Under the pieces are notes generated by a model. That model ran no database searches, had not been told where the DNA came from, and worked only from the letters and a program-made list of their open reading frames with translations. A DNA stretch of 64,000 bases from Octopus vulgaris. Its lineage: Eukaryota. A program made the translations under genes and the position numbers. The stretch covers positions 49,166,001 through 49,230,000 of the forward strand of contig OX597815.1 in assembly GCA_951406725.2 (NCBI GenBank), in the 5' to 3' direction. Shown in pieces: positions 1 through 60,382 of this stretch. Numbering within the stretch: the stretch's first letter is position 1; each line of letters begins with the position of its first letter.

Positions 1-680
1 GCACTAACATAAGATAGTTGCCTCTATTATATGAATCTATGTTATTGGAAATACCTCATGTTAGTTTATCAGCCATACTTTGCCAGGCTGGCTAAAGGCA
101 TGTTGGAAGAGGGCATTAATTTTGGAGTTTTCCTTCTCTTTGATTGCCTGCTTTCATCGCAGCAAAGGAAGCTCAATCTATCCTTACAAAAAGTATGTTT
201 AACCCACTGATGTGACCCTCACAGATACTACAGTTCCGAGTCAGAACGGACCTGGGAGTAATGGTAACTAAGGGACGATTCCACACTTCCTACATTTCCA
301 GAACACCTGAAGTGGAACATCACCAATGGATGCTGTTTAATGTCATATCCCTTACTCAATCAAATCTGTGCTAAAGTGTGAAAAATCCTTTGAGCATAGG
401 TTGCTACGCAAGGTGAGCTGATCTAGGGCAAAACACCGACCCCGGTTCTTGACTGGTACTTATTTTGGTACCTTTTGGTTATCTCACCCCCATTAAAAAT
501 ATTGGGTTATCTCCCCATGTTCTATGAAAAAATATCAGTACTTTTGATTATCTCCCCCAGCTAAAACATTGTTTAACCCTGAATAAAACAACAAAAAAAG
601 AAAAAATTAATATACGTGAAAATTTAATAAATTAGTCATCTTATTGAATCTAATAACATTTTTATAACAAATCATACCAT

Positions 681-846
681 ACGCGCAGGAGTGGCTGTGT
701 CGTAAGTAGCTTGCTTACCAACCACATGGTTCTGGGTTCAGTCCCATTGTGTGGCACCTTGGGAAAGTGTCTTCTACTATAGCCTCGGGCTGACCAAAGC
801 CTTGTGAGAGGATTTGGTGGACGGAAACTGAAAGAAGTTCGTCGTA

Positions 847-4708: not shown

Positions 4709-4819
4709 ATATCAATGTAAGTAATCTCCAGAAATCTTGAATCTAAAAACACTTTCCACTTTATTAAAATGCAGGACAACTCCGATTAACAAAAGTAAGA
4801 TGATATAAAATCCACAAAC

Positions 4820-5535
4820 AACTCAACTTGATTTCGAGCCGGGTCGTCTGCTGCTGGAGAGGACCGATCAGGTAAAGGACCTGGGTATCTTGGTGGATTC
4901 CTCCTTTTCGCCTTCGGCCCAGTGCGTCCATGCTGCCAACAAAGCGCGCGGAATTCTGTTTTTGATTCGACGGTCATTCGGAGTGCTCACAGCAGCCATA
5001 TTCCTGCCACTCTATGTCACGCTGGTGAGACCCATATTGGAGTATGGGATTCAAGCCTCTTCTCCTTATCTCCTCAAAGACATACAGCACCTCGAAAGAG
5101 TCCAGAGGCTGGCTACCCGCCTGGTTCATGGTCTCAAAAATTTGTCCTACGAAGAAAGGCTGAGGACGCTCGACCTTTATTCTCTTGAAAAACGCCGCCG
5201 CCGTGGTGATCTCATTCTCGCCCACAACATCATAAGCGGGAAGTGTAACCTCTCGAAAGAGCTGTTCTTCACTCCTGCTCCGGAGCGTCGGCTGCGGGGT
5301 CATTCCGAAAAGCTCTACCTGCGACGATTTCATCTCAATCGAAGGAGAGGAGCTTTCTCCGTCCGGGTTGCGGATCCATGGAACAAGCTGCCAGATGAGA
5401 TGGTGAAGATGCCGACGACCGCTTTGTTCAAAGCCTCCCTGGACCTCAAGTGGCCTGAACTCTTTACATGAACACCACCCTGTACTTAACTCCATGTCCC
5501 CCTACATGGCCTTGCTATTTGCTTTTGAGCCAAAT

Positions 5536-5663: not shown

Positions 5664-5698
<35 letters not shown>

Positions 5699-5724
5699 AT
5701 ATAGACATACATCCATATATATAT

Positions 5725-5937
5725 GATCGCCATGTTGATTCGTTAGCTACTGCACGCATTTTTTTCTCTCCTTCTTTCTGTGTTTTTCTCTCTCTGTGTA
5801 TCTTTCTGTTGAAGAGCGTAGGCTCGAAACGTTAAAGACTTGTTTTATTTATATTTCCTGAGCGCCATACTAATACAATTGTTCGTTTGTTTTCCACCTG
5901 CCTTCGTCTTTTGTTTATTTTCATAAAGCTTCCCGTT
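5725..5937 (+). mobile_element. Short Penelope-terminal-repeat-like module embedded in (TA)n, copy 1
   Basis: Flanked on both sides by TA-rich tracts; homologous to 30970-31183; contains a hammerhead-like core. Confidence 0.65.
5801..5838 (+). ncRNA. Minimal type I hammerhead-like motif (degenerate core)
   Basis: UCUUU-CUGUUGA-A-GAGC-guag-GCUC-GAAAC-GUU-AAAGA: stems I and II pair; core A6 is changed to U. Confidence 0.55.
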
Positions 5938-5990
5938 ATATATATATATATATATATATATCCATATAGACATACATCCATATATATATG

Positions 5991-7063: not shown

Positions 7064-7098
<35 letters not shown>
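6805..7098. repeat. Degenerate (TA)n/(TACA)n microsatellite
   Basis: Direct inspection. Confidence 0.95.
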
Positions 7099-7099
<1 letters not shown>

Positions 7100-9059
7100 A
7101 AATGGGACAAGAACGCAAGACATTCAGAAGACGATACAAAAAACATGGACTGGTCATTAGATTCCTTGGAAAAAAGCTACGAACGTATACGAAACAAGGA
7201 CGGAAAAACGGACGATGATGCACGATTATAATTGAACGTTTTATGTAATTGAATAAAACAGTTATATGTTTGAAACTGTCGTTTTTAATATTTTGAACAT
7301 AACTCATAGATATTCCAGTACAACTATTGGGAATCAATAGGGTTTCAGGAAAACCAGGTTGGTAGCTGTTGATGTAGAAGTTATCTTATTGATTGTAAAA
7401 ATATTTTACATAAGTGCCGCAAGGGTTTGCCTTTATCTTTGTGTAATTATGTAGAAATACATTCTTAAGACACTGTCAAATTTATTGATAATGTTTTTTG
7501 AAACCCGTGTCGATTAAACAGATATATAATCAAATATATTACATTCCATCTCCGATTTTCTGCGGGCACAAAGTATCTTGGATGATTTTAATAATGCCTC
7601 ATTTACTTTTAAAAAGTGGTAGTGCGCAATTTGTAGGAAGATTTGGAGCCTATTTCTACGAAGTAAAAATGATGTGTAGGTGTTTCGTCATTGGGTCGTT
7701 GACTATAGATGTATTCATTGATCTCTGCTTTCATGGAAGTTTCAAGTTGATAGTAGTGGACTGATTTAATTGGTTTTTAAAGAATTTAAACAAATAAACA
7801 TCTATATCTCTGATTAACTGAGGAATTATCCTTAAATGTGGTTGTCTCAGCTTTTAATAACAGATAAGTCCCAAATACCGTCTGCAGACAACTGGACAGC
7901 ATAGCAAAAGCACGTACATCATATGTATACAGGGGGAGAGAGAAAGAGAAGAGAGGGAGAAGAACAACGGAAGATATATAGAAAGTAACTTAGAAGACAA
8001 TAATGAAGGAGATGCCCCAATTAGTAGAATTGTGATCGAAAGAATTTATGAGAAATAAATTAAGGTCTTCATTATTTGCCTGAGTTCAGTACCTCGGCGC
8101 ATTGACTTGGCTTTTTGAAGCATTTCCTTTCCTTTTTCTTTTTTCTTGTATTTTTCGTGAAAGATAATAAAAGTACAGGACGAAAAATAAGATCGATTTA
8201 TTGGCAGTACACATCTCTTTGTGTCTAATCGAAGAAAATCAATATTGTCTTTACATTCAAGATCACGAATTAGATTCGCTTCTTTATTTAATTAACTTAC
8301 CTAGGTGAAAATAATCTCTCGTCATCAGTACTAATGTATTAATTAGAGTATTAATTGATGTATTAGTTAGAGTACGACTGAACTAAAGATCTCGTCTTTG
8401 TATCATTCACCAAAGAAAAACGTTAGAATGGTGGAGCCCACTTTCTCTGTGCTATTCTAAGGTGGGGTGGACATCTGAAGATAATGCAACCGAGCGAAAC
8501 TTCCATAGAAATCACTTATGTAGCATTACTAGAGAGAACTTGAAAACGAAGAACTATATAATTAACCTGATCTACGTTCATTAAGTACCTATTTATTCAT
8601 GACTAGAATAAAATAACCGATATATGTACTCAATGGTTAAGCGAGGGTTAATACATTTAATGCAGAAATCGTTAAGATACCAATTAGTAATAGTTAAGTA
8701 GTGAGTAAACAAACAATATTAGTTAGCCAATGACAACTATTTTACTTTTTCCAGCAAGCATGGGTGACAACTCATATACGTTTCGACTTATTAAAACCTC
8801 AACAGGGAAACAAATTTGTGTCAGACTAAAGGAAAGGAACGAATGCAGCACAGCAGAGACATGTTAGCCACTCAGAAACACACAAAAAGACTGTTAATTT
8901 CACTTAAACATTTATTGCTTGTAATATAGTGAAAAATGTTTCGTCGATCGAAACTGTGGCACTACACCTCAGAGATGCACATTGGGAAAGTGTTTTTACC
9001 AATTCTTAGGATTGCCTTGAAAATGAAATTTGATAAGCGGAACTAGTGCAGAAGCTCAC

Positions 9060-18024: not shown

Positions 18025-18335
18025 GTATATATATTTTATATATATATATATAAATAATATATATATATATATATATATATATGCATATACATACATATGC
18101 ATAAATACATAAATATACATATATACATATATACGTATATACATATATGTACACACTCACATACATATATATATACATACGTATGTATATATACATATAC
18201 GTGCATATAAATAATATACATATGCATATATATACATATATAAATAATATATATATATATGCATATATACATACACACACACACATATATATATACATAC
18301 ACACACACACACACACATATATATATATGTATGTG
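17745..18335. repeat. Long degenerate (TA)n tract
   Basis: Direct inspection; abuts the 3' end of the Penelope-like element. Confidence 0.95.
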
Positions 18336-19660
18336 TAAAGTAACAGTTTAGAAAAAAAACATTGGTTTCATATCTAGCGTAAACTAGAAATATCTTCAGT
18401 TTCTCTAAACGATAACTGTTCTCTGCAAAGAATATTTTTTAAAACACAAGAACGCCGGTGTTCAAGAAATATTCCTCTTAAAAAATTATGGCCGAGCGCT
18501 TTGTCTTCACTTGATGGCTAAGTTTTCCAATTTTGAAGAAAAAATTTCCGAAAATATGGACAACTCCCTACGGCTTCCATCCTAGAATTCAGGTAGCATC
18601 GTGGCTCATGTGAATTCATAAGGATTATATATATTTTCTGCCATACACAATTTACATAGTTTTGTTCCATTGCGATAGGGCCCACAAATTTCCAATAATT
18701 TCTACCTGATGTTAAAGGGCGTATGATCGTCCTTTAGGCGCTATACGTATTCTGCGAGTGTCGTTGTGTTGCGTCTCTCCGGAACCCTGAAAGAAGATCT
18801 GTGGTTGTTCAGGCGAATTTTAAATTTGGATTCACAAGATCCGACATAAATTTTAGTGTGTGTCCCTGTGTTGGCATTGATGTTATTGATATTTGTGCTG
18901 CTTCTGTTTGAGGCTACCGTTGCTTGGTTCACTGTAGCCTCGGTGTTACATCAATTGTCTACTGGGCATTCATTTCTAATCCTGCATAAACAACCTGCCA
19001 CTGTCCGTGGTTTAAGAGTGCTAAGTAATTTTTTCTTAACATTGGGTGCACAACTGAAAAAGATTCTTATATTATGCCTTTTTAAAGACCTTTCTGTATT
19101 TGTGCGACCACGGGAAATGTTTATCAACCAACCTAAGAAAAATCTTATCTATGCATGTCCGGATGTTTAGGGAGAAGGGGGAGCGAAGGGGTCTTGCAGT
19201 TGCGTTTCCTTTTATGGTTACTCGATCCTAATATATGTGCTATATGGTCCTTGAACCCGCTGGCCGCTAGTGCCTCATTGTAAGTGGGAGCCGCTGCGTT
19301 GAAAATATCTTCATTTGAAGATAAGATCGAAATCCATTTACTGATACCTTTTATTAGGTTTTTGAACACTATGGGTGGGTGGCAGGAGGCTGTATTAATG
19401 TATGATAGCCTATCATTCGGTTTGCAGTATGGTCTGTAGGTGCCACTATCTAAATCAAGTGTGACATCCAAGAAGTTCACCACGGTGAGATTAGTCTCTA
19501 TGGTGATTTGAAGGCCAAGGTTGTTGAGGATGTGCATGATGTCTTTTCTAAGCCTATCTAGAGTATGGCCGTTAGTGCCTCTGGAGACAGCTAAGGCATC
19601 ATCTCTATATAAGCCGAAGTGGACAGAGGGAAATTTATTACCCAGGGTGTCCAGAATGTA
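18336..19660 (-). mobile_element. 5'-truncated Penelope-like retroelement (RT C-half, Cys-rich linker, C-terminal GIY-YIG endonuclease, terminal repeat)
   Basis: FGLYRDDAL...VNFLDVTLDL...YRPYCKPND..SYINTASCHPP (ORF 19145-19735); CLCRIRNECP linker near 18960-18990; KIYVGSCESKFKIRLNNHRSSF (18741-18932); CKLCMAE...LNSRME further 3'; frameshifts and stops present. Confidence 0.9.
18346..18410 (-). ncRNA. Hammerhead-like motif in the Penelope 3' terminal repeat
   Basis: Minus strand GUUUAGAGAAA-CUGAAGA-UAUUUCUAG uuuacg CUAGAUAU-GAAAC-caau-GUU-UUUUUUCUAAAC. Confidence 0.65.
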
Positions 19661-20799
19661 TATATGGGTATAGAACGTCACCAACAGTGAACAATACGAA
19701 ATATTAAAACAAATGAGTTCAATACAACGAAACAAATGGAAAACAGGGCAGGTGACACAAAAAAACGACCCTTCATCAGTTATCGGCTGTCTAACTGCTC
19801 CTCATTTCGAGCATTGAACGACAATGTGAGTCTTCGAAGACAGTTGCTCCCATAAGTACCAAAATAAAATTCTGGATTTATGGAGGGTCAAAATTGGAAA
19901 CAAAAACAGGATAGTGAAAACATACAAGGAAACCGAACGAAAGCAAACATGGAGGGTCGTTAGAAGAGAACGAGGGTAAAATAGCGAACGCTGGAGATAT
20001 ATTTTCTTTGAAAAGAGAAATGATAGAAGAGAGAGATAGAATACGTCCAGTCCTTAGGACAGACCTGAAAGGAAAAAAGATGATCACGTGAGGAAAAGAA
20101 AGACAGCCGTTGTCTTTAACATCTAGGACAAGATAATTTGTCAGTGATAGTTATACCCATCTACGCGCTGAACAAGGAAGAACTAACTAAAACACTTCTA
20201 ATCCAACCACATACACCATATACAATACGTACCGCATATTTATGTATAAATGCACACACACACACACACATATATATGTATATGTACGTGTAACTCTCTT
20301 TTTATATATATGTGTGTGTGTGTTTGTATGTACGTATGCATCTATGTATAAGCACTGAGAATGTGCTTGGTAAAATTTGAAAAATGTTCATCTACTGTTG
20401 CAAAAGAAAGAAATTAATAAAATTTATCAGAAAATTATTTCTTTTGACGATAAATCATGTCAAGTGTGCGGATCATAGGAATTGAGTTCAGTATATTACT
20501 GCTAGGATTTTATCATTCCTTTGGTAGTTTTCCCTAATCTCAATATGATCGAATAACACTGAGAGTAATACAGTATCTGTCTATGGTTGTGTCTTCTGTT
20601 CAAATTAACATGCAATATATAGGGGAAGTTTCAACAGCACAAAAATAAAATCACTGTAGATATCAAAGAAACGGTCTTGTATTTCAGTCTCTCTCTCTAG
20701 TTTTGGATAACAATTTTCGTAATTAATGTAGCTACAAAGTCTCAGTTTCACAATCACTAATGATCTATCATTCTTGGCGATTTCATTATTCTTAACACT

Positions 20800-30697: not shown

Positions 30698-30916
30698 CAG
30701 TAATCCCTCGCCATATTGCGGTTCACCTATCACGGCTTATTATTTAAGCTTGCGTCGAATCCTCCACGATATTGTTTTGCATTTATAATAAAATAAATAT
30801 ATAAAAATTATAAACATTTCAAAAAAATATGCGGTACAGTAGTGTTTCTACCTCGCAGATTTTCACCTATCGCGGTGGGTGGGGGTGGAACGTAACAACC
30901 GCGATAATCGAGGGAT

Positions 30917-30921
<5 letters not shown>
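30698..30921. mobile_element. pogo/Tigger-like MITE
   Basis: TIR CAGTAATCCCTCG / CGAGGGATTACT abutting TA; second copy at 44437-44624. Confidence 0.75.
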
Positions 30922-30969
<48 letters not shown>

Positions 30970-30972
<3 letters not shown>

Positions 30973-31183
30973 GTGACCGCGTGTGTACCGTTGGCGATTT
31001 TTTTCCCTTCCGTCTTCCCTTCTCTGGATCCTTCCTTTTCCTATGTTTCTGACGAAGAGCTCCGCTCGAAACGTTAAACCCTCCTTCTTCCCTTCCTTCC
31101 TGAGCGTCCAATAATACTATATTTGTTCCACGTCCTCGCGTTGTTGTGTTTTCTCTTTGTGTTTTCATGTTTGGATTAACTTT
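30970..31183 (+). mobile_element. Short Penelope-terminal-repeat-like module embedded in (TA)n, copy 2
   Basis: (TA)n on both sides; same layout as 5725-5937 (pyrimidine tract, hammerhead, TCCTGAGCG...TAATAC...ATTTGTT). Confidence 0.7.
31045..31079 (+). ncRNA. Minimal type I hammerhead ribozyme motif
   Basis: GUUU-CUGACGA-A-GAGC-ucc-GCUC-GAAAC-GUU-AAAC: intact core, stems I and II; stem III is loopless within the palindrome AACGUU. Confidence 0.7.
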
Positions 31184-31196
31184 ATATATATATATA

Positions 31197-31403
31197 TAAT
31201 TCATTTTTATACTTTTTATGATCTAGTTATATGTTTTATAAAAATATATTTTATTTGATATTTATGTTTTGGTTTATGTCTATCATTGTTTGAATTGCAT
31301 AATAGTGGTTTTATCTCTAATTTATATTTTATATATTTATATCGTGAAATTTTATTTAATACTAAATTGAATTTTTCCCTGTAAGTTTGGAGCTATGCTC
31401 CCT
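31197..31403. mobile_element. AT-rich (TA)n-associated repeat, homologous to 42806-43100
   Basis: TCATTGTTTGAATTGCATAATAGTGGTTTT...AATACTAAATTGAATTTTTCCCTGTAAGTTTG shared by both loci. Confidence 0.75.
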
Positions 31404-33144: not shown

Positions 33145-33351
33145 ATAATAAGGTAATCAGTATGTTGGATGATTATATATATTTTTCTATTTATTTACAT
33201 GTTATTTACAATTTTAGCGCTTTCTTTCGTTATCGGATTTTTTCTTTTTTTTTCTTTTTGAGAAATCCGATAACGGAAGAAAGCGCTAAAAATATAATTA
33301 AGATGTAAATGAATAAAAAATATATATAGCCATCCAACATTCTGACTACCT

Positions 33352-42805: not shown

Positions 42806-43091
42806 TTAGGGAGTATAACTTCAAACTTACAGGGAAAAATTCAATTTAGTATTAAATCAAATTTCACAATATAAATATGTAATATATATAAATTAGAGAA
42901 AAACCACTTTTATGCAATTCAAACAATGAATTTAAATTGTTGTCATGAAACGTACGTATTTTTTTTTATTATATATTGTTTATTCATTTTTGTACTTTTT
43001 GTGATCTAGTTATATCTTTTAAAATATATTTTATTTATGATTTGGTTTATGTCTATCATTGTTTGAATTGCATAATAGTGGTTTTTCTCTA

Positions 43092-43104
<13 letters not shown>
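42806..43104. mobile_element. (TA)n-embedded element with inverted arms
   Basis: AATTAGAGAAAAACCACT-TTATGCAATTCAAACAATGA (42891-42929) is inverted at 43056-43094; homologue at 31197-31403. Confidence 0.8.
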
Positions 43105-44436: not shown

Positions 44437-44624
44437 ATGTAATCCCTCGTCTATCGCGGGTGTTACGTTCTAAAACCTCCCACTGAAATATTTAAGGTCT
44501 AAACTGCCGCAGAAACCTGGATATACTGAGGAGTCCGCGATATGATTTTACATATATTAGCCAGAAAAATCCGCGATGTACCAACTGCGTGATAGGGGAA
44601 CCGCGATGTGGAGAAGGATTATCG
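44437..44624. mobile_element. pogo/Tigger-like MITE, second copy
   Basis: GTAATCCCTCG-CTATCGCGG-TGTTACGTTC is the reverse complement of the right end of 30698-30921. Confidence 0.7.
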
Positions 44625-44871
44625 TACTTCGAATACAGGCACAAGGCAAGGAATTTCGCGGGAAGTGGTTATTAGATAGAATCATTTCAAGTACTTGACT
44701 GTATGATTCCGGAGAGATGAAAGACACAGTTAACTTCATCGTGATTAGAACTCAGAACCAGATGTTTTGCCAATCCACCACTATAATTGCACAAATCACA
44801 ATGATTGATTTATTTTCAACCGAAAATAATTTGCCACAGGAATCATCAAATTTCCGACTAGAACACTAATA

Positions 44872-53024: not shown

Positions 53025-53062
<38 letters not shown>

Positions 53063-53075
53063 AGAAATATTAAAT
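53012..53075. repeat. Perfect palindrome centred on (TA)n
   Basis: ATTTAATATTTCTGAC(AT)nGTCAGAAATATTAAAT. Confidence 0.95.
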
Positions 53076-53114
53076 TTCTAAATATCTCATAGAGATATGC
53101 ACGGTGGTGGGGCG

Positions 53115-53289
53115 ATAGAATGGTTGTATACTGTCAATTTAACGTGACAGTAGGGGATTACACCACCGCGTAATATATAAGGACACAGGAAAAAAATGTG
53201 TCGAAGCCATCAGGAAGCGTCGATGCTTCCTAGGGCTAAACCGCGGTGGTGTAATCCCCTACTGTCACGTTAAATTGACAGTATACAAC

Positions 53290-53297
<8 letters not shown>
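53115..53297. repeat. Perfect 56-bp inverted repeat with 71-bp spacer, abutting (TA)n
   Basis: 53115-53170 equals the reverse complement of 53242-53297. Confidence 0.95.
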
Positions 53298-55260: not shown

Positions 55261-56022
55261 TAGCAACGTTTTCTTAGGATTATTGGAAGACAGTTGGAAT
55301 ACATCAATATACAGTTATTTTTATTATTTGTATATATCGGTGACTAAATCTAGCGATACATCGTATGGACATTCATACTTTGCAAGATGGATAGGGTACC
55401 ATCACAGAAAAGTCCAAAGTCTACGAAGTGGAATCTCTTTCAAAGTAAGTCACATTCACAAATCTCATTCCCACCGAACGAACCCTTGGCAACATCACAG
55501 AATACCAAACGGCTACGTTTCAACGAAAGAGAGTTATCATAAAATAACAAAGGATATCAACGTCTGAATCACTAAACAAAATAAAACTTTTACCAAATTC
55601 TAAAACTTTCTGAAGAAGGTATTTAGCTATAAACTGATAGAATTGTACCGATCTGCATAAATGTACAAAGCTTCTTATCTACATTATTGAACACCTTGAT
55701 GACAGGTAAAATACTATTCTGTAAGAGACTAGAAGAGGACATTTTAATATTAACAAATTTAATTGACTAAAACATGTTACTTCTTTTTCAGATACATGAA
55801 ACTGAATTTGAAAAGGAAAGAAAATAATCGCTTGTATCTTTAAATGTAATATCGTACGCGTAATAAAAACGTTTACCAATCTCCTTTAACATCTCTCTTT
55901 CTCCCAATATGTGTGTGTGTGCGCGCGCGCGCGTTTAGTTATTTTGGGTAAAATTCTCGCAAAAACCTTTCAACTTAAAGCTGATGTGGGATACAGAAAC
56001 GTTCGTCGTGCCTTTTGACTTC

Positions 56023-59341: not shown

Positions 59342-60382
59342 GTGTGTATGTTTAATTGTATGCACAACAGTAAAGAAACAAAAGAGAGGAGAAAACAACT
59401 GAGGTTTCACAAAGTGAAACACTGAGTTTCACATTTTAGCGTTTCTCAAGCTTGAGAAGTTAATCAAATGAATTTATATACACATATGAGAAACAAATTA
59501 ATAAAATTGAATTAAAAAAAACCCATTGTATCTTCATATTGATTGTAGAAATCCGTACAAGGATACTAAACATGACATTCTAATTTTTTTTCCGCAAAGT
59601 TCACCTTGTATTCTTTGAACTCAGAAACCAAGGAAATAAATAACGTTCAAGAGATAGACAACAGGGGCGAATTTAAAGTTTTACGACATCCCTAAGGACC
59701 ACGAACAAAATTTTTGTTAATAAAGCAATTTGTAGGTTAATAAATCCAACCAAAATTTAGTTAAGTGTAGTAAGTGGAAATATCTTAGGGGCTTTTAGTC
59801 TTAGCAATAAACAAATAACTAATTAACCATTATGGGATAACAGCACTGCTATCAATAATTGGTTTCATAGTATTAGTAAAAATCTGTTAAGTAAATTTAC
59901 TCAGTTTGGTATAATTGAATTTCTATCATTTGCTAACTGAATCTTTGTTTGAAAAGCATTAGTTTTTACCAATAATTATATTTCAAACACTAAAACTGAT
60001 ATCAAAACGATCACGCATTTAGAAAACCATTGATTTCTTGTGATAATGATGCTAATTCTTTTATTGTAGCAAAGGGTAGCCAAGACTCCACAGAAACTTG
60101 TGATGTTATTGGTATTTATATATTTTTTTTTCTGTAAGTTTAAATTGCAATGTGGCTTGCATCAACATGATAGACATATTATCATACAGAAGATGAATAG
60201 TTAAATTAATGTAGAATTAGAAAAAACGACACAAATTTGTATACACTTGATTTTACAAATTTTGCCATTTATTTCAAAACAAATAAATTCTTAGTCAAAT
60301 GAAACGTTAATATATACATCACTTCAAACCACCCACACGCCAATAAATATTAATGATTTAGTGAAAAATATGAGTAAACTGC

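Follow-up and report, generated by a model that had tools for sequence, protein, structure and literature searches.

The stretch of Octopus vulgaris DNA analysed here (64,000 nt of contig OX597815.1, from 49,166,001 to 49,230,000, hereafter the window) carries two short non-coding modules, m1 and m2, which are located in TA tracts and contain a hammerhead or hammerhead-like motif. A first-pass annotation, made from the letters alone, had described two modules of about 210 bp, each flanked by TA tracts, and this description was borne out (5726-5936 and 30971-31182), with end positions uncertain by a few bases. The modules and their immediate surroundings are the following:

5672-5725, plus strand: left copy of a perfect 54-bp direct repeat, adjoining m1.
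5726-5936, plus strand: module m1, 211 bp, a diverged relative of m2.
5937-5990, plus strand: right copy of the perfect 54-bp direct repeat; the 3' end of m1 joins its TA part.
30920-30970, no strand: (TA)25 plus one A, left of m2.
30971-31182, plus strand: module m2, 212 bp, with no plus-strand ORF, from a very high-copy repeat family.
31183-31199, no strand: (TA)8 plus A, right of m2; the adjacent repeat fragment likely begins with this final A.

By blastn, m1 matches m2 at 71.6% over 88 nt (E 6e-6). The single layout that had been claimed for them holds for the offsets, with 80 nt in m1 and 78 nt in m2 from the module start to the core nucleotide C3, and 103 and 107 nt, respectively, from the cleavage site to the module end. 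It does not hold for the 5' parts outside the hammerhead, which match no better than shuffles (p=0.35); the 3' parts outside the hammerhead are weakly alike in the same kind of comparison (p=0.03). The modules had also been called ORF-less, and all their plus frames are indeed stopped, whereas in m2 a single minus frame stays open over 70 codons, with no credible relative (a search at E 0.01 returned nothing and 2 further hits were unrelated). A profile of m1 and m2 gave 2 hits in the 64-kb window, with no third module and no shorter or longer member. Whole-module folding is not above shuffles (z 1.91 and -0.11 for the two modules). No hammerhead family is present among the 150 of 186 Rfam matches listed for the window, nor is either of the 2 Rfam matches of m2 a hammerhead family. 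A promoter scan returned 0 hits with a bacterial model, which is uninformative.

The hammerhead motifs of the two modules are composed as follows:

31045-31079, plus strand: minimal type I hammerhead of m2, by sequence and descriptor match.
31045-31048/31076-31079, plus strand: stem I of the m2 hammerhead, GUUU/AAAC.
31049, plus strand: core nucleotide C3 of m2.
31056, plus strand: bulged A of m2.
31057-31060/31064-31067, plus strand: stem II of the m2 hammerhead.
31071-31074, plus strand: palindrome ACGU of m2.
31075, plus strand: U17 of m2, after which cleavage is predicted.
5801-5838, plus strand: hammerhead-like motif of m1, with the core CUGUUGA (A6U), C3 at 5806 and U17 at 5833.
31096-31120 (m2) and 5854-5878 (m1), plus strand: short motif around UUCCUGAGCG, common to both modules, about 25 nt past the cleavage site.

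What had been said of the stems at first pass was confirmed. Stem I is UCUUU/AAAGA in m1 (5801-5805/5834-5838) and GUUU/AAAC in m2, the fourth pair showing a compensatory exchange from C-G in m1 to G-C in m2; stem II is GAGC/GCUC in both, with the loops GUAG in m1 and UCC in m2; and both motifs have the additional A after position 9 as well as GAAACGUU. One statement had to be corrected: the core CUGANGA, attributed to both modules, reads CUGUUGA in m1 (A6 to U) and is intact in m2 alone (CUGACGA). Thus, CUGANGA ... GAAA ... UH is present in m2, and both modules possess a residue lying between position 9 and position 10.1, the pair G10.1-C11.1, a palindromic 15.2-16.2 segment without loop 3 and a stem I of 4-5 bp. 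All these features, together with the type I core, the occurrence mostly as single dispersed copies and the compensatory changes, are given for the minimal hammerheads of metazoan Penelope-like elements (PLEs) in the available text of PMC4209133; the whole set is found in m2, in support of the earlier assignment of the motif to this type. The modules differ in stem II, which measures 4 bp versus 7-8 bp in the Schistosoma families described there, and in their core changes, A6U in m1 and U4C in the m2 family, the same text naming a U3-A8 variant and not U4C.

A strict descriptor, composed after the motif was seen (palindromic GAAACGUH, the bulge, both stems of at least 4 bp and at most 1 core mismatch), found 2 sites in the window versus 0 in each of 12 block-wise dinucleotide shuffles, and a looser one found 4 sites versus 0-1 per shuffle. 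A further hammerhead-like motif occurs at 8805, within 8760-8950 (minus strand), with the core CUGUUGA (A6U as in m1), a 5-pair, wobble-containing stem II and GAAACGUA; it has no clear stem I and lies outside TA tracts.

From a structural perspective, the isolated hammerhead motifs fold at z -1.5 and -1.8, with cores predicted to pair in non-hammerhead ways. For dimers, the predicted energies of the hammerhead form are -5.7 kcal/mol in m2 and -13.7 kcal/mol in m1, versus -22.5 and -26.8 kcal/mol for the best dimer folds, all of these values leaving out core and protein contributions. Predicted folding gives no support to cleavage by lone copies of m1 or m2, because the monomer cores mispair and the dimeric hammerhead lies far above the best dimer fold; moreover, the two modules are single copies 25 kb apart and therefore have no dimer partner in cis. 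The downstream UGAGC was considered as a switch competing for stem II and rejected, its pairing probability being just 0.03 and 0.17. Low activity of minimal hammerheads, even in dimers, is reported in the accessible text of Cervera and De la Pena (2014, PMC4209133), and cleavage in dimers is the subject of Lunse et al. (2016), as cited in the available part of PMC6765202. As for the core changes, U4C lowers hammerhead activity considerably in vitro, and A6C does likewise, according to the available text of PMC3088659 and PMC7151607, in which A6 changes lower activity and A6U itself is not named.

The repeat family to which m2 belongs is widely represented in sequencing data. Of the 24 sequencing runs listed, 21 matched the module (20 of them over at least half of its words); they span 11 studies as well as four coded organisms. 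No RNA run is among the matches listed, which carries no information on expression. In four of the 24 runs the contigs fitting m2 at 80% or more numbered 19,524, 15,163, 5,131 and 4,653. The family is large and has many variants, the contig numbers giving no copy number. The contig comparison, in which no junction led from the 3' end of m2 back to its 5' start, skipped 30951-30981 and 31173-31230 as repeats and covers the module interior. Within it, no variant at the 3% threshold is present at C3, G5, A6, A9, A13, A14, A15.1 and U16.1 in the m2-family contigs of the four runs. A change of U4 to C is found in 119, 121, 80 and 87 contigs (counted to 128) and accounts for 36-50% of the summed depth. 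CpG transitions make up 0.5-11% of the summed depth in the core versus 1-11% outside it, and this similar decay inside and outside the core is as expected for neutral decay of dispersed copies. The summed depth drops more gently towards the 5' than towards the 3' end (ratios of 0.16-0.43 at distances of 15-45 nt from the masked edges). This was not accepted as a sign of truncation, since contig depth is no guide to the ranking of segments within a stretch and since m2 carries private changes in that region.

The size of the modules falls within the range of animal retrozymes, and they could be regarded as dispersed monomers of non-LTR retrozymes, whose tandem arrays would yield transcripts that dimeric hammerheads cut and that, once circularised, a PLE reverse transcriptase (RT) copies back. 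In the accessible text of PMC7229834 and 10.64898/2026.07.22.740005, such retrozymes are like the modules in being non-coding, 200-400 nt long, of type I, related to pLTRs and dispersed over chromosomes as monomers; in addition, m2 has both an intact core and the dimer palindrome. They are defined there, however, by tandem units and, where tested, by circular RNA, whereas m1 and m2 are both single, with a minimal hammerhead devoid of the helix sizes of canonical retrozyme hammerheads, and tandem units with hammerheads were not found in the window. The far lower predicted stability of the dimeric hammerhead and the core changes A6U and U4C also speak against it. The available part of the second source, a preprint, ties animal retrozymes to pLTRs and reports cleavage in 1 of 9 dimers (Li, Clavereau & Pollet, 2026). 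On this evidence a retrozyme origin appears very improbable.

The same hammerhead subtype was found in other sequence collections by means of a pattern consisting of the core and stem II, with stem I left free. The metagenome scan gave 117 loci with 118 motifs, which belong to families other than that of m2, share with it just the 28-32 nt core and are likely animal host DNA. Copies of the octopus-type module numbered 0 in viral contigs and 0 in the prokaryote genomes scanned. Positions 1-3 of stem I pair in 108, 104 and 83 of the 118 hits, versus shuffled means of 101, 55 and 48, counts that are inflated by related copies; among the 51 distinct stems the same positions pair in 42, 39 and 22 cases versus 36, 18 and 14 after shuffling. 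Pairing at position 4 of stem I is not above chance in the 118 hits, and stem II, being fixed by the search pattern, carries no covariation information. For 14 hand-picked rows the covariation score is 0.306 versus 0.127 in shuffles, a value reached by 0 of 500 shuffles. Covariation of the stems, proposed at first pass as a check of the motif, is therefore present across the subtype, both in stem I of the 118 hits and in the 14 rows. At position 17, the hits have C in 104, U in 12, A in 2 and G in 0 cases.

A link of the motif to PLEs, also put forward at first pass, is supported by the same collection: an ORF with RT/GIY-YIG lies upstream, on the same strand, in 4 of the 118 hits (L023, L076, L006 and L064), the flanks being long in 80 of the 117 loci and about 300 nt in 37. 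L023 and L076 show the CxxCxxC linker and the CCHH form of GIY-YIG that mark Neptune entries in the accessible supplement of PMC8557442, and Hydra proteins gave 0 matches to the 117 loci by tblastn. The 3' ends of these Neptune-type elements are like the modules in their identical stem II and palindrome, in the non-coding 3' position and in a tail of about 60-110 nt; in the metagenome loci, most shared 3' extents reach 85-100 nt beyond C3, with variable 5' extents. They differ in that the core alone aligns with m1 and m2 and in that copies are almost never found beside TA tracts, a (TA)5 or longer run occurring within 250 nt in 1 of the 118 hits. Therefore, the TA placement belongs to the m1/m2 family and not to the motif, and the assignment of the modules to a PLE clade, given a likeness confined to the core, rests on analogy. 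One locus (L043) contains two hammerheads of the subtype, at 604-632 (minus strand) and 661-689 (plus strand), in opposite orientation and 28 nt apart, which is an inverted truncated pair typical of PLEs.

With regard to the insertion sites, both modules (2 of 2) lie in TA tracts, and the placement claimed for them at first pass is further supported by a likely target-site duplication at m1. The 29-nt distinctive part of the 54-bp repeat occurs in the window at 5697 and 5962 alone, and from its sequence the repeat is likely a target-site duplication, with the 3' end of m1 joined inside its TA part; a local duplication within a compound microsatellite could also have produced it. Around m2 there is a 17-bp repeat (30954-30970 identical to 31183-31199) with one informative, non-TA base, which makes it a weak candidate for a duplication of this kind. 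TA tracts of at least 4 units represent 2.8% of the window, so that two insertions in such tracts would have a naive chance of about 8e-4, an estimate that is post hoc, with n=2, for modules noticed partly because of their TA tracts. PLEs of the Hydra, Naiad and Neptune types are known to prefer (TA)n, as does Hydra-1_Obim, and target-site duplications are often indiscernible in microsatellite targets (both in the available text of Craig et al., 2021, PMC8557442). Hydra-1_Obim, described there from O. bimaculoides, is like the modules in the kind of host, the (TA)n preference and the 3' hammerhead. It differs in the shape of this hammerhead, with its long stem II and looped stem III, and in the distance of about 27 nt that separates it from the end; the hammerhead does not align to m1 or m2.

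The window contains other remains of mobile elements, among which two are described here:

18330-19699, minus strand: decayed Hydra-clade PLE with RT, CxCx5C linker and GIY-YIG; its hammerhead is at 18399 and it ends beside a microsatellite.
31199-31400 (plus strand), 42935-43094 (plus strand) and 42811-42929 (minus strand): three partial copies of a second AT-rich repeat family, the first of them right of m2.

The decayed PLE matches the protein and the hammerhead of Hydra-1_Obim (File S2 in the accessible supplement of PMC8557442). The best protein match of a window RT fragment comes from Octopus bimaculoides (66%), and Pfam returned 0 families for three RT-like ORFs of the window. As the parent of m1 and m2 this PLE was rejected, its hammerhead being different and its 3' tail measuring about 27 nt. 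In the window, neither an RT/GIY-YIG ORF upstream of m1 or m2, nor a Neptune ORF, nor the parent element was found. Decayed Hydra-like RT fragments are also present at 55353-55648 (minus strand) and 59659-60125 (plus strand), and a pyrimidine-rich stretch at 19700-20140 (minus strand), directly upstream of the truncated Hydra copy, shows CUGAUGA at about 19778 and no complete hammerhead. The copies of the second repeat family differ at their 5' ends, one of them is inverted, and a 3' extension of about 80 nt is optional; GAAACGUA occurs at 42946, about 140 nt before the end. As described in the available parts of PMC8557442 and PMC8969392, these features are PLE marks. Marks of the set formed by variable 5' truncation, partial tandems, inverted copies and an optional tail are seen in this neighbouring family and were not seen at m1 or m2.

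Further units were noted along the window. A 235-bp unit at 53060-53294, between TA tracts, has a perfect inverted repeat of about 53 nt (by eye) and could represent either a MITE or a PLE end in inverted form; a long near-perfect hairpin lies between short TA runs at 33183-33319, with a sub-threshold Rfam match to mir-392 at 33213-33290; and a pyrimidine-rich unit at 7098-7420 (minus strand), single in the window and without hammerhead, ends on a long TA-type tract and may be a PLE 3' end. At 4809-5471 (plus strand) there is an open frame of 220 aa with no Pfam match, which we take to resemble the C-terminal part of a LINE RT. A MITE-like element at 30699-30920, with 12-bp perfect inverted ends, lies directly left of the TA tract of m2, and related ends are found at 44439-44653.

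Such a setting raises the question of whether the modules are short repeats that carry the hammerhead as a passenger and are moved by a machine unrelated to PLEs, be it a LINE partner or a DNA transposase. The window does contain SINEs and pieces of LINE RT, m2 sits just right of the MITE-like element, and long target duplications are also a mark of LINEs. However, the modules have no terminal inverted repeats, Pol III boxes or tRNA, and the position and subtype of the hammerhead match PLE ends, so that this origin has very little probability. A Pol III SINE was rejected, the best plus-strand A box having 3 mismatches of 12 to the box consensus, the B-like box occurring inside the hammerhead alone and no tRNA being present; a run of seven T is located 27-33 nt from the module start. 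A MITE was also rejected, the best terminal inverted repeats reaching 5-6 of 12.

Taken as a whole, these data make it probable that m1 and m2 derive from the 3' terminal repeat (pLTR) of an autonomous PLE, as copies without an ORF that target-primed reverse transcription of uncleaved RNA placed in TA tracts. An autonomous PLE, possibly of the Neptune type, would be transcribed; its endonuclease would nick a TA tract, and reverse transcription would begin inside the RNA, at a constant distance of 103-107 nt beyond the hammerhead cut. Synthesis would halt after about 210 nt, either through 5' truncation or, where the RT has begun at an upstream pLTR, through run-off at the 5' end of the RNA, and such run-off would explain the equal lengths of the modules. 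A second, offset nick may have left the 54-bp duplication seen at m1. Since the modules contain sequence from either side of the cleavage site, the RNA that served as template was uncut or had been joined again. Once dispersed, the copies would be inert and would decay neutrally, and cleavage would need a second copy, through ACGU pairing, or the help of a protein.

Some of these steps have parallels in known systems. The fixed 3' end located 60-110 nt past the hammerhead at PLE 3' ends is found in m1 (103 nt) and in m2 (107 nt), and most minimal-hammerhead motifs are single dispersed copies, probably derived from truncated PLEs, according to the available text of PMC4209133. In the Poseidon element PAc of Anolis, as presented in the accessible text of PMC11167929, the RT initiates internally in vitro, 85-92 nt past the hammerhead cut, and the targets are AT-rich; hammerhead mutants insert normally in vitro, and the ribozyme cuts only with protein. 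PAc is like the modules in this fixed 3' end and in its AT-rich targets, and its template is uncleaved RNA; it differs in that the start of its ORF follows the hammerhead, where m1 and m2 are non-coding.

Against an origin of m1 and m2 as 3'-terminal copies of an autonomous PLE stand the missing PLE ORF beside either module, the one informative base of the m2 duplication and the near-equal lengths and offsets of the two diverged copies, which random truncation would rarely give. The same lengths (211 bp in m1, 212 bp in m2) and offsets (80/103 in m1, 78/107 in m2), kept although the 5' parts no longer align, would suit a dedicated SINE-like family that is non-autonomous, has a fixed length of about 212 bp, stems from the terminal repeat of a PLE, is transcribed from master copies of its own and is moved in trans by a TA-targeting PLE protein. 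This corresponds to the first-pass reading, with no requirement for cleavage. Just 2 members are present in the window, together with very many variant contigs in the runs, and the best-supported loose ends near the 5' end (the best 24 of 530) read the first bases of the module itself. Moreover, non-autonomous PLE derivatives are known, such as MRC1 in Chlamydomonas (available text of PMC8557442), as are pLTRs acting in trans, and PLE insertions are among the recently active repeats of O. vulgaris in the accessible text of PMC13282606. This origin is nevertheless a doubtful possibility: the lengths come from n=2, the module ends are masked in the contig comparison, Pol III boxes and a tRNA head are missing, run-off copying of an upstream pLTR also yields equal lengths, and in other animals this hammerhead subtype is the truncated end of full elements. 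A fuller form of the idea, in which a massively multiplied SINE-like Penelope derivative of about 212 bp occupies octopus TA tracts, with duplications of up to 54 bp and a major subfamily with the U4C core, is rather unlikely. If it were true, it would constitute a natural experiment in which PLE mobility tolerates weakened hammerhead catalysis or does without it, and the motif would be kept as a folding or protein-binding signal.

Judged by its sequence, the motif of m1 and m2 is the already published minimal hammerhead of metazoan PLEs. What is new here is the location of m1 between perfect 54-bp direct repeats and the very high-copy m2 family with a common U4C. In a full-text search, no paper dealt with the octopus m1/m2 family, nor did any deal with U4C in hammerheads of PLEs; both may be recorded in resources beyond its scope, namely Repbase, Dfam and the O. 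vulgaris library. The module motifs had no match in this context in the accessible supplements of PMC8557442 and PMC13282606, in which line breaks and cut runs can hide matches. According to the available text of Bonar et al. (2026, PMC13282606), in which the word ribozyme is absent, PLEs represent 6.83% of the O. vulgaris assembly, in 190 families.

With the present data, the known set of PLE ends that bear minimal hammerheads gains an abundant repeat family from octopus, which is useful for repeat annotation. Three details are worth following, namely the 54-bp duplication, the equal lengths of the modules and the U4C subfamily. The duplication at m1 would record a nick geometry that microsatellite targets usually hide. 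The U4C variant, in turn, bears on the role of hammerheads in endonuclease-bearing PLEs, a question left open in the available text of PMC8557442: should lineages with U4C prove to spread no less well than those with U4, catalysis would matter little.
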